Origin: a virus
Lineage: Duplodnaviria; Heunggongvirae; Uroviricota; Caudoviricetes
DNA: 64,000 nt
Strand: one strand, 5' to 3'
Virus record (IMG/VR): IMGVR_UViG_3300021400_002728
Location: 229,154-293,153 of that record
Shown: one piece after another, positions 1-57,212 of the stretch
How positions within the stretch are numbered: position 1 is the stretch's first letter
Layout of the letters: each line of letters starts with the position of its first letter
Notes under the pieces: generated by a model
Databases searched by the model: none
What the model was told of the DNA's origin: nothing
The model's input: the letters and a program-made list of their open reading frames with translations, nothing else
Made by a program: the position numbers and the translations under genes

Positions 1-1223
1 TGATGTGGTAACTTATCTAAATACTTGTATCTGTTTATGAATAGCTCACCTAATACCAATGGATTATCAAGCATTTCAATTTCTCTTTTAAAATACTCAT
101 TCCAGTTAGCAAGTTTAGCTATTTGAGTCACATTCTTAATTTTGTCTGGAAGTGTGTCATGTTCAGAAAAGTCTCTGTTAAATATAAACATAAACTCTTC
201 TTCTGACCAACATACTAGATAATTAAGATTGTTTTGCTGAGCAGTCTCTAACTTCTTTAAGTCTGATTCAGTCCATACATGAATAGCTATGTCAAAAAAT
301 TTAGTATGCTTTGCTTTCCATTCTTCTAAAACTTTAATATCTTCTGAATTATTAGAATCAAAGAAATGACCACCATGTGTCCAAAAGAAATTACATTCTA
401 CATATAAATCTAACTCAGGCACATACATATCACATTCAAATGGATAAACATCTGAAGTATAATGATGTACAGCATTAGGAAATATAGACTGTAATAAATC
501 ATAACATTTATCTTCTGACTGAGATTTTCCATAGGTTCCATGCTCATGTAGAGTTCTTCTACGTTTAACCTTAAATTCTTCAGAACCTAAATATTGTCTA
601 CTTTTGTTAGACTTCCCATAATTATCATAGCCATATCTGGACAGCATTGTAGATTTACCTTTTTCTCTAACTTCCTTAGATTTCATAGGGTTATCTACAC
701 CATAATGCTCCATATATGATTGTTTCTTCTTTTCAAGAACTTCTGAGGAAGCATAAACATTATCTACTCCATAACGTTCTTGAACTGTTTGCTTACACTT
801 TTCTCTATTAGTAAAAGTAGAGTTGCCATATCGCTTTTCTTTAGTAGCAGCAATTTTCTTAGCTGTTTCTGAACTAGCCATTCCAACTCCACCATGATTT
901 TCAATAATAGTTTGTTTAATTTTCTGTTTTACTTCATCTGCTTGAAATGGATTTTCTACTCCATACTTTTCTAAATTAGTCTGTCTAGCTTTCTTTAGTC
1001 TAGACTTAGCATTTGCAGAATTTTTTTCTGACATTATTTTAGCTCTACATTTTTTACAACGTCCTCTTTGTTGATAAAGTTTACTTGGTAATATTTCAAA
1101 ATCACCATGTTCTTTACAAGTAACAATAATAGGAGTTGTATAAGATTTCCAATCTATATTAGAAAAATCATACTCTGGAAATAACTTTTCACATTTTTCT
1201 AAAAATTGTTCCTTTGTAATCAT
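1..1223 (-). CDS. Homing-endonuclease-like protein, partial (runs off window start)
   Basis: Absent from the ORF track. Manual translation from ATG 1223 (SD GAAGGAG) gives MITKEQFLEKCEKLFPEYDFS...CKEHGDF...RCKKC, KYGVEN-type repeats and the nuclease-like motif YPFECDMYVPELDLYVECNFFWTHGG, which is shared with 36975..38009. Confidence 0.8.
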   Translation of the reverse strand, partial: MITKEQFLEKCEKLFPEYDFSNIDWKSYTTPIIVTCKEHGDFEILPSKLYQQRGRCKKCRAKIMSEKNSANAKSRLKKARQTNLEKYGVENPFQADEVKQKIKQTIIENHGGVGMASSETAKKIAATKEKRYGNSTFTNREKCKQTVQERYGVDNVYASSEVLEKKKQSYMEHYGVDNPMKSKEVREKGKSTMLSRYGYDNYGKSNKSRQYLGSEEFKVKRRRTLHEHGTYGKSQSEDKCYDLLQSIFPNAVHHYTSDVYPFECDMYVPELDLYVECNFFWTHGGHFFDSNNSEDIKVLEEWKAKHTKFFDIAIHVWTESDLKKLETAQQNNLNYLVCWSEEEFMFIFNRDFSEHDTLPDKIKNVTQIAKLANWNEYFKREIEMLDNPLVLGELFINRYKYLDKLPH

Positions 1224-1312
1224 TTTTATTTCTCCTTCATAGAAATATAATAAGCAGCTTAGTGATGAAGGCACTATTACTCAAAGGCTCATGACTTCCT
1301 TTGCTCCCTGCA
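1224..1312 (-). promoter_or_regulatory. Structured leader RNA, copy A (three-way junction plus kissing loop on SD hairpin)
   Basis: Stems AAAGG/CCUUU, UAGUG/CACUA and UAUUUCU/AGAAAUA. Loop CCUUCAU is complementary to SD loop AUGAAGG. Covaries with copy B. Confidence 0.75.
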
Positions 1313-1320
1313 TTATTAAC

Positions 1321-2164
1321 TTAATTGTAGAGATACTCGTATATCTCCAATGCAGTCATTTCTTTTTCTTCGCCGGCTACACGAACTTTAATTTTTTCGT
1401 CTTTATCAAACTCACGACCGGTAATCCAAATTTTACCAGTCCAGTCTGTGGGCTTATAGTCTGCGACGTCATTCAAACCAATTTTCTGCATCTTCTTATT
1501 ACGAGAATACATAACTGAACGTCCAATTCTTAAAATCTCTGCAGCCTCTTGAACAGAGTTAGCAACGGCAACTACACCATTCATTCCCTTAAAAGGATAA
1601 ACATTATTAGACTATATCATATTCTCTAATTAGAGAACCCTACCACTTCGATTTAATAGACTGATATTAGACTAATCTCATCTAAATGCTAACCATATTG
1701 GCTCTACTCTACTTACTTCGTGCAAATGCCTTATTTTCATACCGTATTTCAGGTCCTATAGCTTTCGATAGTCGTTGAACCCGTCTCTGTTACCAAGACT
1801 TGGCTGCTGATTTTCCATTCTTATAACCCTTAGGATTTAACCATAGGTCATCCAAATTATTTTTTCTGCTTTCGCTGCATATCACGTTTAGTATTTCTCT
1901 TACGTTGTAGCTAATTTGGCATTAGGTTCGTATTCATTATAAGAATACTGTTCCAGCAATTCAATAGGGAATTTTTCACGCATGTCACCATACGCGGGAG
2001 CTTCATCCTTTAAAAACGCACTCCGTTTGCTTTATGTCTACAAGCGCAACCGATATTTTATTATTATGTTCGATTCTTTAGGCTTTCGCCTAAATACAAT
2101 GGAATATGACATTCCTCAAAGTGACACTATTGTGCGAAATGAGTCCTCGTTTAGCTGTCTCCAT
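1321..2164 (-). CDS. Fragment of FtsK/HerA-like ATPase paralog A: mini IntC + bypass element + group I intron; coding segments 2164-2093, 2071-2020, 1601-1321 (~134 aa)
   Basis: SD AAGGAGGTG precedes METAKRGLISHN|SVTLRNVIFHCI[gap]EHNNKISVALVDIKQTEF/YPFKGMNGVVAVANSV. This aligns without gaps to SVCEQSIVGHVSRYSDRFQLVGVDCKRVEFNLLRGVKGVKGVALDV of gene B. Confidence 0.8.
1602..2019 (-). ncRNA. Group I intron in ATPase gene A (418 nt, no ORF)
   Basis: Core motifs GAAUUGCUGGAA, AAUCAGCAGCC, GUUCAACGACUA and UGAUAUAGUCU. P1 is GGAGU|...GCUCC with a U-G pair, P10 is AAAGGAU/AUCCUUU, and the intron ends in G. Removal restores ...QTEFYPFKG. Confidence 0.9.
2072..2095 (-). other. Putative programmed translational bypass element (take-off AUU, UAG, hairpin, landing AUC)
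   Basis: ATT TAG GCG AAA GCC TAA AGA ATC, with hairpin UUUAGGC-GAAA-GCCUAAA. Removing 21 nt restores collinearity with the paralog. Confidence 0.7.
2129..2164 (-). other. Mini split-intein C fragment (12 aa, METAKRGLISHN, +1 Ser)
   Basis: Has its own SD and ATG inside the 3' end of the upstream endonuclease gene. Ends His-Asn followed by the Ser equivalent to the Walker A GK-S serine. Confidence 0.8.
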
Positions 2165-3257
2165 TGTAATCATCACCTCCTTTTATAAACTGTTTAGTTT
2201 GAGCTATATTTTTACATTTTCTACAACAGTACATTTGATAACCTCTAGTGAAGTTAATATACTTAGTAGGTTTATTACAAACTAAACATTTCCCTTCATT
2301 ATTAGATTTTATATATGTATCATAATATTCTTTGCAAGTAATCTGTTCATTAAATCTAATATGTGCAGACAGATAATTACCATTTTGAAAAGTCTGATTA
2401 CATATTAGACATGTCATTGGATTATTTTTTATTTTAGGTACATATACAATAGTTCTTGGTTTATCATACTTAAATTTTTTATACCAATATTTATCTTTAT
2501 ACTTCTCTTCACAATACTCTAAATATTGCTTAATATCACTATATGACCATACTATAATGTTGTTTGTATCAATGCATTTTTGTTTATCAGAGTCTTTTAA
2601 TGTGCCATCTGAATTTAGATATTGATTACCTTTAACTTCTATAATATCAGCATTTATTTTAAAGTCAGGAAAATATTTATGTGTAATATTATTTGAGTCA
2701 GTATAAGTCAATATGATAGGTAAACGTTCTATAGGTATATTATGATCTTTATGCCAAATATATACGGCAACTTCCCAAGATGAATCAAATAATTGATTAT
2801 CATAACTATAATATTTTCTAGACTGTTGGATATTTTTGTCTTGCATTGGATGTTCAACACCATATTTAGCTAAACTGTTCTTCTTATGTTCAACCTTAAA
2901 ATAATCAGTTTTGAATATTTCATCTTGTCCATATTTAGCTTTTATAGTTTTCCTAATCTTAGATCTAACTTCTTTAGAACTTAATACACTTTCTACACCA
3001 TATCTTTCTAGATTAGTGTCTTTATGTTTCTGTTTACATTGTTCTGTATTATGAGAACATCGTAAGCAATATTCAAAATATCCATATATAACATTTTTGA
3101 ACTTAGTAGGTTTTCCGCAGGTTTTACAAAATCCATCATTGGTTTTATGTAAATAAGTATCATAGTATTGTTTAGTTTCTATTTTATGTGCTTGCTTAAT
3201 ATGTCCTCCAAATCCAATATTAGATTCAAATTCTTTTCCACAAATAAGACATTTCAT
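2151..3257 (-). CDS. Free-standing homing-endonuclease-like protein (Zn-finger modules, YGVE repeats, PD-(D/E)XK domain)
   Basis: CLICG...H...H and CxxCGKPT modules at both ends; nuclease motif DSSWE...YFPDFKI...IIEVKG. Confidence 0.8.
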   Translation of the reverse strand: MKCLICGKEFESNIGFGGHIKQAHKIETKQYYDTYLHKTNDGFCKTCGKPTKFKNVIYGYFEYCLRCSHNTEQCKQKHKDTNLERYGVESVLSSKEVRSKIRKTIKAKYGQDEIFKTDYFKVEHKKNSLAKYGVEHPMQDKNIQQSRKYYSYDNQLFDSSWEVAVYIWHKDHNIPIERLPIILTYTDSNNITHKYFPDFKINADIIEVKGNQYLNSDGTLKDSDKQKCIDTNNIIVWSYSDIKQYLEYCEEKYKDKYWYKKFKYDKPRTIVYVPKIKNNPMTCLICNQTFQNGNYLSAHIRFNEQITCKEYYDTYIKSNNEGKCLVCNKPTKYINFTRGYQMYCCRKCKNIAQTKQFIKGGDDYNGDS

Positions 3258-3344
3258 GCTATTTCTCCTTAATAGAAATATAATAAAGCAGCTTGATGAT
3301 TAAGGCATCATTATCTCTTTGGTTAGCTAGACCAAAGCTACCTG
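3258..3344 (-). promoter_or_regulatory. Structured leader RNA, copy B
   Basis: Stems AGGUAGC/GCUGCUU, UUUGGU/ACCAAA, UGAUG/CAUCA and UAUUUCU/AGAAAUA. Loop CCUUAAU is complementary to SD loop AUUAAGG. Confidence 0.75.
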
Positions 3345-3360
3345 TTATATTATTAAATAG
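3345..3360 (-). promoter_or_regulatory. Recurrent motif CTATTTAATAATATAA (putative phage promoter)
   Basis: Identical 16-mer at 40568..40583, also upstream of an endonuclease-IntC unit. Variants occur at about 6161, 16016, 18426, 27931 and 47203. Confidence 0.5.
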
Positions 3361-3368
3361 CCTATATG

Positions 3369-3400
3369 AAAAAGAGACATACCAAGCTTGATATGTCTCC
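3369..3400 (-). terminator. Intrinsic terminator
   Basis: GAGACAUA/UAUGUCUC stem followed by a U tract after 3409..3744. Confidence 0.7.
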
Positions 3401-3408
3401 TTTAAATG

Positions 3409-3744
3409 TTAATTTGTCCAAACTCCATCTTTGTAATATACCGTACCTAAGTTAAAACTAAACTTCCAACCAGTTTTCATATATTTGTCGTCATATAATC
3501 CAGCGTCTATAACAGCTTCATAGTCATTTTCTGTACCACCTTCAAGTGGATTTAAAGTAAGTCGTACAAAGTATGGTTTTCCATCTCGCTGTGTATCTGG
3601 TGCAATAGAATAATAACACTGATCAGTTTCATTATAGAATAAAGTTGGAAATTTGAGTTTAAACAAAGTAAAGAGTACAATTGTTGCATCAAAAAAATCA
3701 TCTGTGCGAATAAGGTCAGTGTAGAAATCAGCGTCTTTTGTCAT
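3409..3744 (-). CDS. Hypothetical protein
   Basis: ORF with SD GAAAGGA, followed by a terminator. Confidence 0.7.
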   Translation of the reverse strand: MTKDADFYTDLIRTDDFFDATIVLFTLFKLKFPTLFYNETDQCYYSIAPDTQRDGKPYFVRLTLNPLEGGTENDYEAVIDAGLYDDKYMKTGWKFSFNLGTVYYKDGVWTN

Positions 3745-6514: not shown

Positions 6515-7012
6515 TTAATTTCCTTTCTCAATAGTATCGTAAATATTATGATCGTATTTATCTTCATCTGGACAATCATCATCATTATCATTGCCAGTTT
6601 CAACAAAAGAATCATTTCCAAATAAGAATCTATCAAGAAGATTTTCATTAGCAAAAAGATCATCTAAAGGAATTTCTCCACAATGGTCAATATAACCATC
6701 ATTATTTTCAGCATACTCATATTCTTTACCATTCCATTCAGACTTTACCCAGTTAATTTCCGGTGCATGAATTTCTTCTACACCTTTTCTTTTAAGATAT
6801 TCAAAAAACTTATCAAGTTCTTCTCGTCCATTATCTAAGCATGCCTGATAAAAATAGTTTAACGTATCATATTCAGTATCTGCGCTCCATCCATACTCTC
6901 CACCTGAAAGAAATACTTTATGTGGTATACTGATAGAAGTATCTTTTGGAATTACTAATACATGTACACTAGAACTATTAGTTTCAAACATGCTCTGTCT
7001 AATTTCAATCAT
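6515..7012 (-). CDS. Hypothetical phage protein (FETNSSS-H N-terminal motif)
   Basis: IRQSMFETNSSSVH resembles a motif recurrent in phage hypothetical proteins (recalled, not searched). Confidence 0.7.
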   Translation of the reverse strand: MIEIRQSMFETNSSSVHVLVIPKDTSISIPHKVFLSGGEYGWSADTEYDTLNYFYQACLDNGREELDKFFEYLKRKGVEEIHAPEINWVKSEWNGKEYEYAENNDGYIDHCGEIPLDDLFANENLLDRFLFGNDSFVETGNDNDDDCPDEDKYDHNIYDTIEKGN

Positions 7013-7328
7013 TGCTATCTTCCTCCATAGTATCTACGTAGATATTGCTAATTTTGCAGTAATAATTTAAGTCTTTTATAAGATCATTGACATTATCTAC
7101 AACTTCTTCATATGTTAGATCATAATCTTCAAAATATTGTAAGTTATCTGCCTCTCTTTCAATATCATCAAGATTATTTGCTAAATCAATTTCGTCATAC
7201 TCCTCAGGAAACTGTTCTCGAATTTCTCTCCAACATTTCTCAAGTATAGAAAGTACTTTTTCTACTTCGAGTTCCTCAGCTGCATTCTTTAATGCTTTTC
7301 CATTTTTTAAGGAATATCTATATGTCAT
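7005..7328 (-). CDS. Hypothetical protein
   Basis: ORF with SD. Confidence 0.65.
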   Translation of the reverse strand: MTYRYSLKNGKALKNAAEELEVEKVLSILEKCWREIREQFPEEYDEIDLANNLDDIEREADNLQYFEDYDLTYEEVVDNVNDLIKDLNYYCKISNIYVDTMEEDSND

Positions 7329-7343
7329 TAGTATTCTCTCCTC

Positions 7344-7718
7344 TTAAAGTGAATTTCTAAAATTAACCATTTCTTTTTTTAAGTAATAATTATGAAAATC
7401 TTCATCTATGACTTGACCACCGAGAAATAGATGATTATTTTTTGTTTCAATATGTCTTACTATACAATTAGTCATAATGACGAATTTCTCAGATGAATTT
7501 GAATAATAAACCTCATCACAAAATACAATTTTCACTTCATCATTTAATTCAATTGATAATTGTGATATGTCTATGTCGGAATCTATTGTAATGCCTATCC
7601 CTAACTCTGAAATATCATGTACATAACCAGTAACCTCAAAATTTACACCATCTATATACAGTAATATAGGTACATCAACAATAGACAGACGAGTATAATT
7701 TCGTCTATCGTTAATCAT
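7344..7718 (-). CDS. PilZ-domain protein (putative c-di-GMP receptor)
   Basis: RRNYTR (RxxxR) and DISELG (DxSxxG) motifs in a beta-rich 124-aa protein. Confidence 0.8.
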   Translation of the reverse strand: MINDRRNYTRLSIVDVPILLYIDGVNFEVTGYVHDISELGIGITIDSDIDISQLSIELNDEVKIVFCDEVYYSNSSEKFVIMTNCIVRHIETKNNHLFLGGQVIDEDFHNYYLKKEMVNFRNSL

Positions 7719-7928
7719 AATTTACTCCCTCTTTTTAATATTATTAGCTTTCCTGATCCCAAGGCTCGAAGTCTTTTCTGCATAAATTATCCTGAATAAT
7801 ACCAGTTTCATCATTCTCTGCAATGAAATAATCACAATTTAACTGACTAGGTCCAAGATAAGTAAAGAACTTATAAGGCTTAGTCTTAGTCTGAACAGTT
7901 TCTCCGCGCTTGATGTTAGAATCAGTAA

Positions 7929-8504
7929 TCATTGTATTCTCCTTTGTATGCTATCAAACATTATATTGACAAAATCTAATGTAGGACTTGCTAATATAGA
8001 TTTATCATACTTATATATAATATTATTGTCTATACTTCTAATATTGCCTGCAATTATTATTCGATCATAACCTTCTTTAGAAAAATCATAACCTTGAAGT
8101 GTTAACCCAATTAGTTCTGCTGAAAATCTAGTATATTCTTCATCAGGAAAATTGTCAATCACTACTGGTAAATCAGTTATTTCATCTCTAAATGTTGCAG
8201 TCTCATTTACAATATCAATATATGTAGTAGTGATATTCAAATTGATCATATAAATTGAACTTATACAATCAGCGTAAATAGCAGAACTATCGTGTACAAA
8301 ATGACCACTTAAACATATGGCACTGGGAAAGAAACTATCATTTGTATATTGTTTCATAGTCTGTACACATATATTATATTGTGCTGGATCTAATAACACA
8401 GGTAAATTTGAACATATATCAGTAAATCTATGTAATATCTGTCCATTTGTTGGATTATAAATCATAGACATACGACAGATTGTAAATATGTCATTAACTG
8501 TCAT
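7929..8504 (-). CDS. Hypothetical protein
   Basis: ORF with SD AAAGGAG. Confidence 0.7.
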   Translation of the reverse strand: MTVNDIFTICRMSMIYNPTNGQILHRFTDICSNLPVLLDPAQYNICVQTMKQYTNDSFFPSAICLSGHFVHDSSAIYADCISSIYMINLNITTTYIDIVNETATFRDEITDLPVVIDNFPDEEYTRFSAELIGLTLQGYDFSKEGYDRIIIAGNIRSIDNNIIYKYDKSILASPTLDFVNIMFDSIQRRIQ

Positions 8505-8514
8505 TATATCTCCT

Positions 8515-9039
8515 TTAATTTACCCAAATATTATCAAACAACTGACTAGTATCAACTTCTGTGTCAATTGCAAAATCTACATATACGGGTACATGTTTAT
8601 TATTAATAGGACTGATTCTCATGTAAAGAGATCCATCCTTATAGATAAGCTCTTCATTAATTGGATATTTGATCTGCTTAAGAATGTCATTAAGCTCCTT
8701 AATGTATATAACTAGCTGTTCTTCTAAGAAGCGAATAAACTGAGCGTCTTCAGCTAATCCATCATACCAATCATCTTCATTAAAATTATCTCTAGAGTCA
8801 TTGATTTTTACACGAATTTCAAACTTACCATCCCTATCATCCAGCGGCTGATCTATATACAAAATAATTTTAAGATCACCAAACTTATTTGACTTATAGT
8901 TAAGTTTCTTTTCTAGATCATTAGTAAGCTTATATATGGTATCATTAAGGTATTCAATATATTCGTCCCAATTATCAATGTCACTTGTATCTGTTGATAA
9001 TATAGTAGCAAACTTAACCTCAGATCTAATTTCGTGCAT
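8515..9039 (-). CDS. Hypothetical protein
   Basis: ORF with SD GGAGG downstream of a promoter. Confidence 0.7.
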   Translation of the reverse strand: MHEIRSEVKFATILSTDTSDIDNWDEYIEYLNDTIYKLTNDLEKKLNYKSNKFGDLKIILYIDQPLDDRDGKFEIRVKINDSRDNFNEDDWYDGLAEDAQFIRFLEEQLVIYIKELNDILKQIKYPINEELIYKDGSLYMRISPINNKHVPVYVDFAIDTEVDTSQLFDNIWVN

Positions 9040-9066
9040 AAAATCATACCTCCGTCATTTTTATTT

Positions 9067-9095
9067 ATTATAACATGACTAAATTAATTTGTAAA
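9067..9095 (-). promoter_or_regulatory. Sigma-A-type promoter
   Basis: CTA-TTTACA, 17 nt spacer, TG-n-TATAAT. Confidence 0.75.
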
Positions 9096-9320
9096 TAGTT
9101 TATTATACAGTCTTTTAACTGCATCGATATCCAATCTACCAAAATCTAAGTCTCCGTATTCTTCATCTCCAATATTATTCGCAGCTACAATAAGTTTCAT
9201 GCACACCTCACGTCCACATGCTTTCATTGTTCCATCTTCATTAAATACATCATTGTAAGCTGCTTCAAATAGCGCTAAATTTAATTCTGTTTGATTCATT
9301 TTTCTAACTTCCTTTCTAAT

Positions 9321-9358
9321 AAAAAATTTGTGGCTACAGCTATAAAAACCGTAGCCAC
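9321..9358 (-). terminator. Intrinsic terminator after the free-standing Hint gene
   Basis: GUGGCUAC/GUAGCCAC stem and U tract. Confidence 0.7.
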
Positions 9359-9379
9359 GGTTTATAACACAAAAACCTC

Positions 9380-9736
9380 TTATTGCGTATATATAGCAAA
9401 TTGATGATCTGGTGCATCAGTGGTTATACACATTACAACTTCAGGATCTATCTTCTTAATAGATTTGATGATAGGTCCATCTTTAGTTCCAACGGGTCGT
9501 CCTTTATACCAGTCAAACTCTTGGTAAATGCCTTCAGCATCTATCGTATACATTTTATCATTTATGTATACGTTCCATTGATGTACATTAGAACATTTAA
9601 CTTTTCCATTGCTAAAAGTTATTTCATACATATTGTAGGATAACTTAGCTTTAGTCTTTTCAATGACTTTGTGAAATTCGCCATCAGTTCCTAAGACTAA
9701 ATCACCTACTTGAACATCTGCGATAGTCTTCTTCAT
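9380..9736 (-). CDS. Free-standing Hint (intein) core lacking both termini; class-3-like
   Basis: KTIADVQVGDLVLGTDG (post-block A), YEITFSNG..KCSNVHQW (block B with HxW) and VVMCITTDAPDHQF (block F with Cys). No block A strand and no terminal HN. Has its own SD and terminator. Confidence 0.85.
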   Translation of the reverse strand: MKKTIADVQVGDLVLGTDGEFHKVIEKTKAKLSYNMYEITFSNGKVKCSNVHQWNVYINDKMYTIDAEGIYQEFDWYKGRPVGTKDGPIIKSIKKIDPEVVMCITTDAPDHQFAIYTQ

Positions 9737-9763
9737 TGAATAATTTCCTTTCCTTAAAATACA

Positions 9764-10135
9764 TTATTTATCTGAGATCTGAGATACTACTTCAGCGGGT
9801 ACAATATGATTTAATAGAAGATTAAGATCAACCATTACATCAACTAAGTATTCAATCTCATTAGGATCATAAAATTTATTAAATCTAATAGTATCGGTTA
9901 AAATTCTGATTTTATTAAGAAATACCTCTACATCGAGTCTATTTAGATATTGTTCTATCTTATCTACTAATTTTTCATCATTATACTTTAATAATTCTTG
10001 TATCAATAATTGAGTAAGATAATCATTTTTATCTAATACTCTTTTTATATAAATAGTTATTTCTTCTTCTAAATTGTTATAATTGAATTTTAACGCTTCC
10101 ATTGGATATAATTTGAGGGGTATAACAATTTTCAT
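9764..10135 (-). CDS. Hypothetical protein
   Basis: ORF track. Confidence 0.65.
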   Translation of the reverse strand: MKIVIPLKLYPMEALKFNYNNLEEEITIYIKRVLDKNDYLTQLLIQELLKYNDEKLVDKIEQYLNRLDVEVFLNKIRILTDTIRFNKFYDPNEIEYLVDVMVDLNLLLNHIVPAEVVSQISDK

Positions 10136-10145
10136 AGTAAATTCC

Positions 10146-10454
10146 TTATTCAGCTATCTCACCTGTTATAAATACAAATTTGTCTTCTGAAATATAAGCA
10201 GTTCCAATTGATTCGACTTCATCATCTTCTACATCAAATATAGATGGTTTGTTGTTTTTAGCCATTACATCTGCAATATCGTCCCAGTCAAAGATTTCAT
10301 ATTTCTGTCCCGGATTCAAACTTTCATTTTCTTTAAGTCTTATATTGTATTCAGGACGTCCTATTGTCTCGAATGCTTTACTAACTGAATCGTAACTATT
10401 ATCTGCAACTTCAACTACACTAGTAATATATTTGGTTTCAATTACAAGCAACAT
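10146..10454 (-). CDS. Hypothetical protein
   Basis: ORF with SD GAGGA. Confidence 0.65.
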   Translation of the reverse strand: MLLVIETKYITSVVEVADNSYDSVSKAFETIGRPEYNIRLKENESLNPGQKYEIFDWDDIADVMAKNNKPSIFDVEDDEVESIGTAYISEDKFVFITGEIAE

Positions 10455-10599
10455 GATATTATCCTCCTCTATTCATTATAAATGTCATCTTCATCATAAG
10501 ACTCATCATCTTCGTCAAACCAATATGGTTTGATCTTCCATTTTGTTTTATCAACTAAAGTAAATGCTAGTTTCATATTTAACCTCATTATATTCTTTA

Positions 10600-12918
10600 T
10601 TATGCATCGAATAATTTAGATAATATATTATTAGGTTGTATATATGTTTTTACAAAATCTTTGCAATCATCTTCAGTCATAGACTCTCCAGAAAATACAA
10701 ATGTTCCAGCACCTATAGTTATTTTATCTATATTATACTTATTGACTAAATCAACTAAAATATCAGATGTAAATGGTTTCTCTTCATTAGCCCAACTTTT
10801 TTCATAACTAGCATTATATCCATATCTATAACATGCTCTAAAAATTTTTGTTGGTTTTGGTTCATTATCATTATTCTCATAAATTTCTACATCAAAACCA
10901 TCTGCACTAATTCCAGATTCTGTTCGTATGAAAAGTATATTATTAAATTTTATATTTTTAGCTTCAATTTGTTTACGAATATCAGCTGGACAATTAGGAT
11001 TTTTTGCAATATAATTATAATAAGATTCATCACAAATATTATATATATTCGTAAGTAACTCGCTATCAATTCTATCACTGCTAATAACCTCTTTAATTTT
11101 AGTAGCAATTTTTAATAGTGTTTGTACTGGACAATTAGGATTAGACGCTACTGCTGATTGTACTGTAGAATCTTCATCTTCGGCTAATTCATTAAGAATA
11201 GTAGCTGGACACAATTTATGACTAGCTGCAAAAGCTCTAAGGGACCAATGTTTACATTTAGATAGCTGACTAATATTATCTTCAGTTAATTCTTTATTTT
11301 TAAGTGATTCTATAATGTTATTAGCATAATTAACCCTCTCACAATCTATAGCATGGTCTATTAGAAATTCTAAAGAGCAATTGGGTAAACTAAATAAATA
11401 TTCTTGTATTTTATAATTGCTTAGATCATATAATTGCTTAATTTGCTCAGTAGTTAAATCTAAAGCTTTTAATTTATCAAGTATAACTTTACATGTAAAA
11501 TCTTGTATACCATAAGGTGTATTGTTTAATACTGTACATATTGTAGTAACTGTACAATTTTTATGATTTATTACTGCTTCAAGTATATCAAATGCAAACT
11601 TATCTCCAATTTTATATAAGATTGATTTGTTAGTTAATTGTGCAAAATTTTGTTCTGTTAAACTCATTTTAGCTAACTTTTTTAATGCTTCTTTTGACCT
11701 TGTATTTTGAATTAAAAGAATTAAGTTATCTACTGAATCAATATTTTTAACTATTTTTGTTATATCATCTTCATCTACATATTCAAAATTTGATAGCGCA
11801 TATATATCTATTGTATCTTTAAATCTATTTTCTAATAATTCATATACAGTTTTATTTAGATTTATTACTTTAGGTACTACTTCAACAGGAAAATTTTTAT
11901 GATTTATAATATATGATAATCTACGTTCATCATCTAAATTTTTTTGTATAAATATTTCAAATATTTCTGAAGTACAATTGTCTAAATCAAGTATAAAACT
12001 GCCATTATAAGTTTCACATATATCTGTCTCTTGTACTAAACGCATTAACTGTTGTGTAGTTAAATTACGCTTTTTTAAACCCTCTATTACCTCATTTTCA
12101 TGCATATATGAAACAAGACGTGACATAGAAACATTAATTATAGTATCAAGTGAACAATTTTTATGCGCTAATATTTGTTCTTTAATTCTAATATCATCAT
12201 TAAGTAATAAATTATCAATAAATTCAGATGTTATAACATCAGGAAAACGTTCATTAAGTTCATTCCAAGCATTTGTTGGATTTTTTACCCAAGATATATT
12301 ATTTATATAATTTACTAAAGTATTTACAGTTACTAACTTATGTTTTATTACTTTATCACAAATTTCGTCGTTATCACCAGTTTGTGCTGAAATATGCTCT
12401 AATACAGCTGAAGTACAATTTTTATGCTCTACTGCAAATAAACAGCTAGCCTTAGAATAATTAGTTATTTGTAGTATAGATAATAGTTGTTCTTCATTTA
12501 AGTCGTGTTTTAGTAAAACATCAAAAATTTGTTGACGAAGTCTATAGGATTTTTTCATAATATCAATAGCAATATTAGTTGAACAAAGTTTATTTTGAAC
12601 AATTGCTAATAAAATTGTTTCGTCTTTATCTGTATTATTTGATATTTTATTTAATATTTCCAGTGTACATGACTTGTGATTAACTACTAAAAGTTTATTT
12701 GAATCTAATTTTGATTCTGCTAATTCTTCTAATATATTTGATATATCATAAGTAGTAAAATCGGCATTATCAATAATATATTTTCTATTATCTTTAGTTA
12801 AATTAGGATTATCAAATAGGGTTAACAATAATTCATTATTAGAAAAATCTAATATCATTTGAATAGTACTAGTATTATTTGTAGTTTTAGCTAGTTGTAA
12901 AATTTCTTCTTTAGTCAT
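10600..12918 (-). CDS. Helical repeat protein (LRV/HEAT-like)
   Basis: Recurrent (H/N)(K/P)NC(T/S/P)xxxL units, e.g. AVASNPNCPVQTL and IAKNPNCPADI. Confidence 0.7.
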   Translation of the reverse strand: MTKEEILQLAKTTNNTSTIQMILDFSNNELLLTLFDNPNLTKDNRKYIIDNADFTTYDISNILEELAESKLDSNKLLVVNHKSCTLEILNKISNNTDKDETILLAIVQNKLCSTNIAIDIMKKSYRLRQQIFDVLLKHDLNEEQLLSILQITNYSKASCLFAVEHKNCTSAVLEHISAQTGDNDEICDKVIKHKLVTVNTLVNYINNISWVKNPTNAWNELNERFPDVITSEFIDNLLLNDDIRIKEQILAHKNCSLDTIINVSMSRLVSYMHENEVIEGLKKRNLTTQQLMRLVQETDICETYNGSFILDLDNCTSEIFEIFIQKNLDDERRLSYIINHKNFPVEVVPKVINLNKTVYELLENRFKDTIDIYALSNFEYVDEDDITKIVKNIDSVDNLILLIQNTRSKEALKKLAKMSLTEQNFAQLTNKSILYKIGDKFAFDILEAVINHKNCTVTTICTVLNNTPYGIQDFTCKVILDKLKALDLTTEQIKQLYDLSNYKIQEYLFSLPNCSLEFLIDHAIDCERVNYANNIIESLKNKELTEDNISQLSKCKHWSLRAFAASHKLCPATILNELAEDEDSTVQSAVASNPNCPVQTLLKIATKIKEVISSDRIDSELLTNIYNICDESYYNYIAKNPNCPADIRKQIEAKNIKFNNILFIRTESGISADGFDVEIYENNDNEPKPTKIFRACYRYGYNASYEKSWANEEKPFTSDILVDLVNKYNIDKITIGAGTFVFSGESMTEDDCKDFVKTYIQPNNILSKLFDA

Positions 12919-12949
12919 GATTAATTTCTCCCTTTATCATCATCTATAC

Positions 12950-13240
12950 TTATTTCTCCAAATACTGTAATAGTGTATCGCATTCAGTAAGATAATGACC
13001 TATATAATCTGGATCATCTTTATCAATTTTACTCATGAGTTCTGACTTAATATTATTTAGCCAATCTCTAATCCAAGAATCATTATGATTAACGAGATCA
13101 GCTTCAATACTTCTAGCATTCTGTTCTAATACTTCGTCATCATCTCCGCCGTTATCAAGAAAATCATAAGTATCAAAAGCTTCAGCTAATTTGATAAGTC
13201 TTTGAGCAAAATCACTATTATTTGCAAGAGTATCGCTCAT
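12950..13240 (-). CDS. Hypothetical protein
   Basis: ORF with SD. Confidence 0.65.
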   Translation of the reverse strand: MSDTLANNSDFAQRLIKLAEAFDTYDFLDNGGDDDEVLEQNARSIEADLVNHNDSWIRDWLNNIKSELMSKIDKDDPDYIGHYLTECDTLLQYLEK

Positions 13241-38200: not shown

Positions 38201-39448
38201 GTCTAAGTATAACGTTAGGGTACTTAGCTGCTAAGGTTCCTCATTCTACTAGCCCTTAGGATTTAACCATAGGCCAAACAATCAATTTTTTCTACTTTCG
38301 TTGCATTCACATCTATTCTTTCGAATTATGTTGTAGCTTGATTGTTGTTAGAGTCGTATTCATTATAAGAATACTGTTCCAGCAATTAAATAGTTTATTT
38401 CTCACGCAGATTACTCTACGCGCAGGCCATACATGTTTATAAAACCTGCATCTGTTCCATGAACTTAAATCTGTCCATCATAATCTGTTGGAAGTTGGCC
38501 ACTGCATCTGCTGCTGTAGGTACATCCAACGCGACACCTTTCACGCCTTTTCGGTTAACTCTATAATTTTCATTATAAACCTGACTATATCTCGTATATA
38601 AATTTATATACTCCTATCACTTTCAACTGTAACTCATCTTCAGTCGTACTCTCCTTATGGAGATAGTCGATACACCTTCAATTAAGCTTGGCACGGTATT
38701 ACCTGCTATCTTACGAAAGACCGTAGGATCTCTTAGTCAGCTGCTTCGTCTATGGTCTAAGGCTATATATCTTGTTGTAACACTTCATATAGCAGTCTTA
38801 TTCAACTGATACCGTTAGCAATATAGAATAAGATCTATATCACACCCTTGAGTAATGAGGTTCAATAGGAATGCGCAAAGTTACTTACGCCGCGTAAAAG
38901 GTTAAATTCTACTCTTTTACAGTCAACACCTACTAATTGGAATCGATCTGAGTAACGCGATACGTGACCCACTATGCTTTGTTCACACCGAATTGTTATC
39001 AATAAGCTTTTTATCTTATTTTCTATGTCATTACAACATAAGTCCAGCGTACCTTTTCATTACAGATTCTGCATCTGTGTCATCCAATGGTGAGGCCTCT
39101 TGGAAGTATTATATTCTCTAATATCTCAATTAAAGGTTCAACTTCTACGCGTTGCCGTTGACTATACTTTTACATATAGCCTTAACATTCTGATTATGGT
39201 TGCAAACCATTTTCCAGCTTAATTCCTCACTAATAATCCATAATTTACTTGATGACTTCATTATGGACGGCGAACTAATAGCTATGCATTTATTGCACTA
39301 TTAGTCAGTTTACCGATTTACCTGAGTTGTGAAATACAGATCCATCAGGCATTAGATACATAGGGTCATCTTCAAGCGAAAAACCAAAATATTGGTCGGT
39401 TTTGTTCAATGGTTTAACACTGAACTCAACCTGTTTCACTACACTCAT
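35231..39448 (-). CDS. FtsK/HerA-like ATPase B, C-terminal precursor: IntC + 5 exons (39448-39312, 38988-38887, 38551-38444, 36980-36326, 35893-35231; 554 aa)
   Basis: The spliced frame is open end to end (1665 nt): ...HN|SGKSV (3' half of Walker A), LLFLADE (Walker B), ARLGRAAAVHLALACQR (FtsK/HerA Arg-finger/Gln motif), KGRG, then an acidic and Pro-rich tail. Confidence 0.88.
35894..36325 (-). ncRNA. Group I intron D (432 nt)
   Basis: P1 GGAGAAU|...GUUCUCC; P10 UCCCAGU/ACUGGGA; motifs GAAUUGCUGGAA, AAUCAGCAUCC, GUUCAACGACUA and GAUAUAGUCU. Joins PEN/DWEF. Confidence 0.92.
36975..38009 (-). CDS. Intron-encoded homing endonuclease-like protein
   Basis: Zn-finger CRIC..H..H and CEVCGKPT; nuclease-like YPFVCDLYIP..IELNFHWTHG. 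Starts right after the intron S motif. Confidence 0.85.
   Translation of the reverse strand: MNETICRICNQPISNRLFKKHLEQHNISQQTYYDMYFGKGVCEVCGKPTNFKDIFKGYNKYCSRSCLNKSTIHSNSVKTTKIIRYGTPTYNNPNKTSESLLNRTDDEKQKSILKRKSTCQAKYGDETYNNSKKYKETCLKVYGTTSPFAVESVKQKISDKYYAKSDEEKKAIYAKRQATFDSKTEEEMKIIGQKHRDAYMLKSDKEKAEIKHKSYLTKKKNHSFKVSKTEDLCYEQLLSIYPDAKHGYKSTKYPFVCDLYIPSKDIYIELNFHWTHGLHPYNKKNDSKKLTEWIEKSKTSKYFENAIHTWTVRDTHKLKVAKRNKVQLFVFYTKSEFDTWLSMQ
36981..38443 (-). mobile_element. Group I intron C (1463 nt) carrying a homing endonuclease gene
   Basis: P1 GCAGGU|...GCCUGC; P10 UUAUAAACAU/AUGUUUAUAA; motifs AAUUGCUGGAA, GUUCAACGACUA and AAGAUAUAGUCU. Joins MQV/NNVY. Confidence 0.9.
38552..38886 (-). ncRNA. 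Group I intron B (335 nt)
   Basis: P1 GCGU|AAG..UUUGCGC; motifs GCUAACGG, GUAAUACCGUGCCAAG, GUAUCGACUA and AGAUAUAGUCAG. Joins LLRGV/KGVKGV, collinear with gene A. Confidence 0.85.
38989..39311 (-). ncRNA. Group I intron A (323 nt), immediately after Walker A
   Basis: P1 CGGU|...GCCG; motifs AAUUAAGCUGGAA, AAUCAGAA, CAACGCGUAG and AAGGUACGCUG. Joins SGKSV/CEQ. Confidence 0.85.
39326..39448 (-). other. Split-intein C fragment (41 aa)
   Basis: MSVVKQVEFSVKPLNKTDQYFGFSLEDDPMYLMPDGSVFHN followed by Ser. Block F (YFGFSL) and block G (VFHN). SD GGAGG and ATGA overlap with the upstream gene. Confidence 0.92.
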
Positions 39449-56717: not shown

Positions 56718-57212
56718 TTATTCCTCCATAATTTTTTCCATTACATAATGAGATCTAAACTCATCATTCATGTGCATGTATATATTTACAGGAATTTCAA
56801 GATGTTCACCAGTATCTCGGTCAACTAATGCAAGAATATGTCCACCATTTACAGTGTACGAAGTTCCATCAATAGAAATTTCAAACATTTCATCTTCACC
56901 AGTATGTAGTTCTTTTACCTTACGTGGTTGTCCATCCTTACCCATAACTACGTCACCTAATTTAACGTCTTTTGCAAGTTTAATTCGTGAACCGACTGGA
57001 TAATTATCGTCATTTGAAAATTCTTCAATAGTAAAACTTCTCTTTATTCGTTTTCCGTCAACAAGGTCAACAAGATGATGTTTCCTGTACATATTTTTAA
57101 TTAAATAGTCTTTTACTGACACAACTTTTTTACAACCAAATCTAAAAAGAGTTAGTTTGTAGTTTTCGTCAGCTATAATAAAACTACCATCATCTAAAGT
57201 GATTTTATACAT
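56718..57212 (-). CDS. Free-standing Hint/intein-derived protein (IntN-like, no N-terminal nucleophile, no HN)
   Basis: KDVKLGDVVMGKDGQPRKVKELHTGEDEMFEI..SYTVNGGHIL, preceded by a second degenerate block-B copy MYKITLDDGSFIIADENYKL..SVKDYL. Confidence 0.8.
   Translation of the reverse strand: MYKITLDDGSFIIADENYKLTLFRFGCKKVVSVKDYLIKNMYRKHHLVDLVDGKRIKRSFTIEEFSNDDNYPVGSRIKLAKDVKLGDVVMGKDGQPRKVKELHTGEDEMFEISIDGTSYTVNGGHILALVDRDTGEHLEIPVNIYMHMNDEFRSHYVMEKIMEE

Follow-up and report, generated by a model that had tools for sequence, protein, structure and literature searches.

A free-standing class 3 Hint core as the probable middle piece of a naturally three-piece intein in a huge phage

Introduction

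What can an intein body do when its gene carries neither end of the intein and no extein? The question is raised by a 118-aa open reading frame in a 394,266-bp virus record (coordinates prefixed C1), of which a 64-kb stretch, C1:229154-293153, was analysed as the window; positions without a prefix are those of the window. The initial annotation took this ORF for a free-standing class 3-like intein core, belonging to a natural three-piece intein or acting as a protein ligase in trans, and paired it with an ATPase fragment about 7 kb away that begins at a P-loop. The gene, the fold of its product, its conservation and the partners indicated by homology are described here. A slash in a sequence marks a splice junction unless stated otherwise.

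Results

The core ORF lies on the minus strand at 9380..9736, with the translation quoted in the initial annotation, and contains block B (S49..H52-Q53-W54) and block F (the nucleophile C103, then D110-H111-Q112-F113). A Shine-Dalgarno-like run, AAGGAAAGGAA, was read from the sequence 7 nt 5' of the ATG (9744..9754, minus strand). An intrinsic terminator with a 12-bp stem, a 5-nt loop and a AAATTTTTTA tail occupies 9320..9358 (minus strand); its stem and T-tract, at 9358-9330, directly follow the core stop, with 1 observed against 0.3 expected from shuffles. The ORF, ribosome-binding site and terminator first described for this gene were therefore all found. In Pfam the core protein gave only a sub-threshold match, to Hom_end_hint (21.6 bits against a cut-off of 32.1), and its PHROGs matches were intein-bearing families. 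Megablast of positions 7000-13000 against the INPHARED phages gave 0 matches.

The structure of the core was modelled with AlphaFold2 using 30 family members as input, giving a pLDDT of 89.7. The top PDB matches of the model in Foldseek were the class 3 DnaB inteins 6bs8 from M. smegmatis and 6rix from M. chimaera (the latter also 6riy), with an E value of 2e-6 and a TM score of 0.71, and gp41-1 ranked after them. Alignment of the model with 6bs8 using VIA-align gave a Z of 14.7 and an rmsd of 1.5 Å over 108 residues, model residues 1-118 lying on residues 13-133 of the chain. The model has the Hint fold, of which the first and last strands are missing from the ORF. In the profile comparison with MchDnaB-1, residues 4-54 of the core family aligned with residues 16-67, HQW on HQW, and at the class 3 Cys the profile VQCITTD aligned with VRCVEVD, a second-domain match that is weak alone. 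The profile alignment and the 6bs8 superposition agree that the core begins after block A and stops before block G without any extein, as had been proposed.

Two features define class 3 inteins (PMC7891396): the WCT triplet (Trp N3:12, Cys C2:4, Thr C1:5) and the lack of a position-1 nucleophile. The Trp, two residues past the block B His, is W54 in H52-Q53-W54 of the core. The core segment VMCITTD, which contains C103, is matched by CVCITTN in the contiguous relative P0067, and a Cys at the block F position (C2:4, the branch-point nucleophile) was found in 61 of the 61 representative clusters inspected. The other class 3 features lie outside the core ORF, on the partner pieces described below: the IntN opens with Pro (QNN/PLSIDTLVEVKD) and so has no Cys, Ser or Thr at position 1, and the IntC supplies Thr G:5, the terminal Asn and Cys+1 in trans (T-H-N/C). 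The initial annotation had read a Ser in place of the Thr, but the true C-tag has the Thr, so the substitution need not be assumed. On the fold matches and the alignment of HQW and Cys with class 3 DnaB inteins, the core is, at the level of sequence and model, a class 3 Hint domain that runs from about intein residue 13 to before block G.

Among 5.8 billion proteins searched, 55 free-standing core homologues of 69-137 aa were recovered. Fifty of these are 117-137 aa long with 62-92% identity, the remaining five being fragments of 69-102 aa. Many of the homologues are carried by contigs of 100-467 kb (huge phages). In an alignment of 30 sequences (29 core homologues and this ORF) C48, H52, W54, C103, D110, Q112 and F113 were invariant, including the key residues of the HQW and MCI motifs that the initial annotation had singled out. 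Pairwise dN/dS of the core against four relatives was 0.04-0.23, with dS saturated. By these alignments the free core is conserved and under purifying selection, and the earlier description of a free-standing class 3 core without blocks A and G agrees with fold, motifs, conservation and selection alike. The surrounding region is crowded with introns, DUF7487 endonuclease-like ORFs, stop-containing inserts and other signs of mobile DNA, as would be expected if the core ORF were a functionless remnant of an intein, decaying after homing endonucleases and introns had passed through. Such a relic is extremely unlikely, because the core is conserved, its catalytic residues are invariant and its dN/dS is low; in addition, the gene has its own Shine-Dalgarno run and terminator, its length has been kept in 50 of the 55 homologues, and an intact core ORF is present in three of three complete related genomes.

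The complete set of 1.84 billion representatives was scanned with HMMER, and in the 61 representative clusters inspected this one domain occurs in four architectures: contiguous, split only after block A, split only before block G, and doubly split. In the contiguous form the intein lies within its host protein, as in P0067, a 746-aa member of the FtsK/SpoIIIE family (Pfam FtsK_SpoIIIE, PF01580, 65 bits) with the junctions ...ILRSN/PLALDTLVET...IYTHN/CGFRAF.... P0061, P0074 and P0092 consist of the N-extein and the intein up to block F, without block G. P0058, P0065, P0081, P0084 and others start past block A and continue through THN/C into the C-extein. Free cores without either end are P0057, P0060, P0068, P0071, P0073, P0076, P0077, P0082, P0088 and others.

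To locate the partners of the core, P0067 and P0070 were used as tblastn queries on the record, and this revealed an FtsK/SpoIIIE-like ATPase encoded in at least six minus-strand pieces over about 140 kb. The N piece, which is piece 4 of the ATPase (C1:180426-179404, minus strand), ends ...IIQNN/PLSIDTLVEVKD followed by a stop and so carries a 12-aa IntN. The C piece (C1:195648-195184, minus strand) has a strong AGGAGG site and a 32-aa IntC leader ending NMIFTHN, after which the extein begins CAARI.... Both are outside the window, 43 to 60 kb from the core. In local alignment to P0067 the IntN piece covered residues 475-491, the core 493-614 and the IntC piece 618-628, so that the three tile the P0067 intein at the orthologous site with 0 overlap and gaps of 1 and 3 residues; the exteins IIQNN and CAARIV... 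correspond to ILRSN and CGFRAF... of the contiguous protein. As in a split intein, the fragments lie on separate genes, in four genomes, and their exteins together correspond to one host protein. The division is into three, as the middle piece has no extein, the N piece contains only the first 12 aa of the intein and the C piece has block G alone. This intein at the QNN/C site is referred to as intein 2.

The same arrangement was found in related sequences. Forty-three N-piece homologues are ORFs of about 132 aa with the C-terminal end QNN/PLSxDTLVEVKx and a stop, and in others introns interrupt the frame, at three sites in all; 54 C-piece homologues open with a 13-32-aa tag ending (I/V)(F/Y)(T/S)HN before the Cys, the slashes within brackets here separating alternative residues. 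N118, N119 and P120 were invariant in an alignment of 34 N pieces, and in an alignment of 41 C pieces H31, N32 and C33 were invariant and T30 was kept in at least 90%. In each of three related IMG/VR genomes, G001-G003 (331,944 bp, 290,311 bp and 467,383 bp; CheckV 100% complete, two with terminal repeats), all three parts of intein 2 are present, each as an ORF of its own; the co-occurrence of the three parts suggested as a check in the initial annotation is thus seen in three of three complete relatives. The order of the five pieces located in G001 is that of the present genome. On one ENA contig about 4 kb separates the N piece from the C piece.

The fragment originally paired with the core was also found. 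The IntC peptide METAKRGLISHN (2129..2164, minus strand, with its own SD AAGGAGGT) precedes ATPase piece 3 (1321..2128, minus strand; 2164-1321 with the IntC), giving METAKRGLISHN/SVTLRN... at an FtsK-like ATPase 7.2 kb from the core. An ORF ending GxxGxGK plus a short block A peptide and a stop, which had been named as the missing counterpart, exists as ATPase piece 1 (430 aa; C1:319960-318668, L001:269-1561, minus strand). Piece 1 has a membrane N-terminus and continues through ...ALCVGS, an intein and TGGGK to the 15-aa block A peptide AIYIDQSVEVQSDEV and a stop, this peptide being the N-tag of the P-loop intein (intein 1). The 118-aa core might then complete intein 1 with METAKRGLISHN/S (2164) as C-tag and rebuild GK/S, given that core and C-tag are both in the window, on the same strand, and that the TGGGK ORF with its block A peptide does exist. 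This pairing is nevertheless highly improbable. All contiguous or two-piece relatives of the core have a PLxLDT... block A, a block G of the form (I/V)(F/Y)THN/C and the QNN/C site. The GGGK/S site moreover owns a free Hint core of 196 aa (C1:303296-302706, minus strand, beyond the window), a type that is free-standing in three of three related genomes. The 196-aa core matches the N-terminal part of P0070, in which the same core type is fused to ...GLIHHN/SVAVQN....

By homology, the 118-aa core fits the QNN/C site, and METAKRGLISHN/S serves as C-tag to another three-piece intein, at the P-loop GGGK/S. The initial proposal of a natural three-piece intein has good support, but the partner named for it was wrong. 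Since the P-loop site has a separate core, one ATPase of this genome contains at least two three-piece inteins.

Other features of the ATPase pieces were observed. The contiguous class 3-like intein of piece 1 (PLGLNTIVPT...VRCFMINSDNHLF...) sits four residues into Walker A, and the five extein residues TGGGK stand alone between it and the N-tag of intein 1. Its terminus is Gln here and in G001 (AAYIYQ/T) and Asn in G002 and G003 (YTYN/T). Between Walker A and Walker B the ATPase has a plain split without intein motifs, one ORF ending ...EIYEYLYN (piece 3 stop at 1321-1323) and the next opening MGWFDHQDSG... (piece 4 start at L003:2427). The plain split is kept in relatives, and P0061 and about 120 N-piece homologues begin there.

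From the anatomy, homology, fold, conservation and co-occurrence observed for intein 2, we infer its assembly and splicing chemistry, for which established class 3 splicing serves as the template (PMC2807308, PMC7891396). The core is probably the extein-less middle of a class 3 intein that is split into three pieces by nature and would ligate the ATPase pieces. The N piece, with IntN as the first β-strand, the 118-aa core, and the C piece, with IntC as the last strand, would assemble post-translationally as one Hint fold. Cys103 of the core would attack the Asn-Pro1 bond and become linked to the N-extein by a thioester. Transfer of the acyl group from Cys103 to Cys+1 of the C piece would follow, and the terminal Asn32 of the C-tag would cyclise. 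An S-to-N shift would then give ...IIQNN-CAARI..., restoring the ATPase motif downstream of Walker B, with release of the 12-aa and 32-aa tags.

The assembled Hint fold could instead be a non-covalent clamp or a cleavage module, by which the ATPase halves are held or processed without ligation. The intein-less split of the same ATPase (...EIYEYLYN, stop, then MGWFDHQD...) means that non-covalent assembly of its pieces does occur. A clamp would, however, have no need of the conserved class 3 residues, and in the alignments W54, C103, H52, the terminal His-Asn, Cys+1 and Pro1 are invariant and 90% or more of the sequences retain Thr G:5, which makes this reading unlikely.

In the ligation reaction the core would end chemically unchanged, so turnover is conceivable: its sole covalent role would be the transient Cys103 thioester, and the tags would leave the exteins, so that the core would be regenerated. 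The free core may tentatively be regarded as a putative multi-turnover trans-acting ligase for 12-aa C-terminal and ~8-aa N-terminal tags which, with the 196-aa core, might be a switch timing the assembly of a DNA-translocating ATPase, although this extension is doubtful. Assembly of three bodies through strands of 12 and ~8 aa may be slow or weak.

Several of the ATPase pieces are interrupted. Five codons past the splice junction, an in-frame TAG interrupts the C piece of this genome and of G001 (CAARI-stop-VVAGR; CGT ATT TAG GTC GTA), here at C1:195535-195540 (L004:636-641, minus strand); the G002 allele is TAG-free. The downstream frame is highly conserved and the TAG is common to relatives. 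P0208, P0209, P0226 and P0280 have TAG plus 1-5 extra codons at this spot, other relatives being insert-free (CAARIVAGR); two of these four, which show Q at the TAG position in the database, were checked, and they translate only with TAG=Q. Similar inserts of ATT TAG plus a few nt occur in piece 3 of G002 and G003. Genome-wide recoding of TAG was rejected, as TAG ends 28 of 334 long open frames with no enrichment between in-frame open stretches, and a CGT-to-CGT hop was rejected because the landing is out of frame. An array of 39 tRNA genes and a tmRNA (C1:104893-125227) includes a tRNA with anticodon UUA (C1:114279-114350) that could read UAA and UAG. The N piece is interrupted by an intron of about 620 nt with approximate boundaries, whereas G001 and G002 have intron-less alleles of it. 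Owing to the TAG of the C piece and this intron, the mature substrates of the core depend on further, unproven steps.

Piece 3 consists of an exon (2128-2093), an 18-nt stop-containing insert (2092-2075), a second exon (2074-2020), a 418-nt intron (2019-1602) and a third exon (1601-1321), all on the minus strand. The METAKRGLISHN/S fragment is thus broken 12 codons past its Ser by the insert, and further on by the intron. Removal of the gap at the insert restores a gap-free alignment of piece 3 to its homologues. The insert (2075-2092, minus strand) is a candidate programmed translational bypass with take-off codon 2093-2095 and landing codon 2072-2074, reading ...TGT ATT / TAG GCG AAA GCC TAA AGA / ATC GAA..., where slashes mark the ends of the gap. 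The gap at the same codon is 21 nt in G001 and 26 nt in G003, with none in G002. All three gaps share the take-off codon ATT, a UAG directly after it, a TAGGC-loop-GCCTA stem with differing loops and a landing codon ATC or ATT, an arrangement that we take to resemble T4 gene 60. Readthrough cannot account for the gaps, because each contains 1-3 stops and one of the lengths is not divisible by 3. The hairpin was also considered as a repeated element, which was rejected on its single occurrence in the genome.

The 418-nt intervening sequence (1602-2019, minus strand) contains no ORF; its 5' exon ends in U and the insert in G, which fits a group I intron. The joined exons give ...KQTE-FYPFKGMNG..., a layout identical to the intron-less alleles of G001 and G002. 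Rfam gave no family in the window at gathering thresholds and no group I intron at E <= 1 within 1-3500, and the introns are therefore predicted only from exon junctions compared with intron-less relatives. As the interruptions are common to relatives and the flanking frames are conserved, they can be read as processed features rather than decay.

Three DUF7487 zinc-finger ORFs, which are probably homing endonucleases, adjoin the intein or intron break points (2151-3257, 3-1274 and L003:323-1393, all minus strand). The one after the N piece ends ...LVQNNPLSADTLVKTKD and a stop, a second copy of the extein/IntN-2 junction. Elsewhere in the window a 41-aa IntC with blocks F and G (...GSVFHN/SGKS; 39326-39448, minus strand) opens an ORF that ends two codons after SGKS, and a second orphan Hint protein of 164 aa (56718-57212, minus strand) matches Hom_end_hint with 39.8 bits, above the cut-off. 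The two represent a second split-intein system, which may be a third three-piece intein.

Discussion

No natural three-piece intein was found in the literature searched, in which inteins are encoded by one or two genes and three-piece forms are engineered constructs only. Splitting into more than two fragments has been stated as unproved in nature (bioRxiv 10.1101/2023.01.30.526203). A paper on 360-402-kb gut "Jug" phages describes stand-alone Intein_splicing genes and fragmented genes without a three-piece reading. The present case is natural and conserved across many metagenomic contigs and four huge-phage genomes, with at least two such inteins in one ATPase and the nucleophile on the extein-less piece. 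If the proposed chemistry holds, protein splicing can evolve into a system of an enzyme plus two tags, and the naturally optimised tags of 12 and ~8 aa may be of use in protein ligation or labelling. It would also explain "orphan" Hint genes and prematurely ending ORFs of huge phages, which are now annotated as hypothetical or fragmented.

The closest designs are the engineered three-piece inteins derived from Ssp DnaB, Rma DnaB, Npu DnaE and gp41-1 (bioRxiv 10.1101/2023.01.30.526203), which likewise have an N-extein with a short IntN, a free middle and a short IntC with the C-extein. The natural cuts, after a 12-aa IntN and before the last ~7-8 residues (block G), fall at the engineered split sites S1 (11-12-aa IntN) and S11 (6-7-aa IntC; PMC3620165). 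Unlike the engineered constructs, the phage intein is natural, conserved, under selection and of class 3, so that the middle piece, which has no extein, would provide the first nucleophile instead of the N-tag.

Like the class 3 inteins (mycobacteriophage Bethlehem DnaB, PMC2807308; 6bs8 and 6rix, PMC7664689), the phage domain, at ~25% identity, has the Hint fold, the WCT triplet and a THN end with a nucleophile at +1, and lacks one at position 1. The class 3 DnaB inteins are contiguous proteins that splice in cis and turn over once, whereas it takes three genes, 15-60 kb apart, to encode the phage domain. No split variants were present among 1701 class 3 inteins, and AceL NrdHF was the first naturally split class 3 intein reported (PMC7891396; 6zgq). 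Both AceL NrdHF and the phage intein are natural class 3 inteins from metagenomic data, with trans-splicing in the former and predicted in the latter; AceL NrdHF has two pieces, both fused to exteins, and the phage intein has three, with a free core. The locus further resembles the "fractured genes" of Dassa et al. (2009, PMC2677866), in which the host gene is broken at an intein and endonuclease-like ORFs adjoin the break; their counterparts here are the DUF7487 ORFs next to the IntN-2 and IntC-1 ends. Fractured genes consist of neighbouring halves with a two-piece intein, whereas the pieces of the phage ATPase are spread over about 140 kb and joined, as proposed here, by a three-piece intein.
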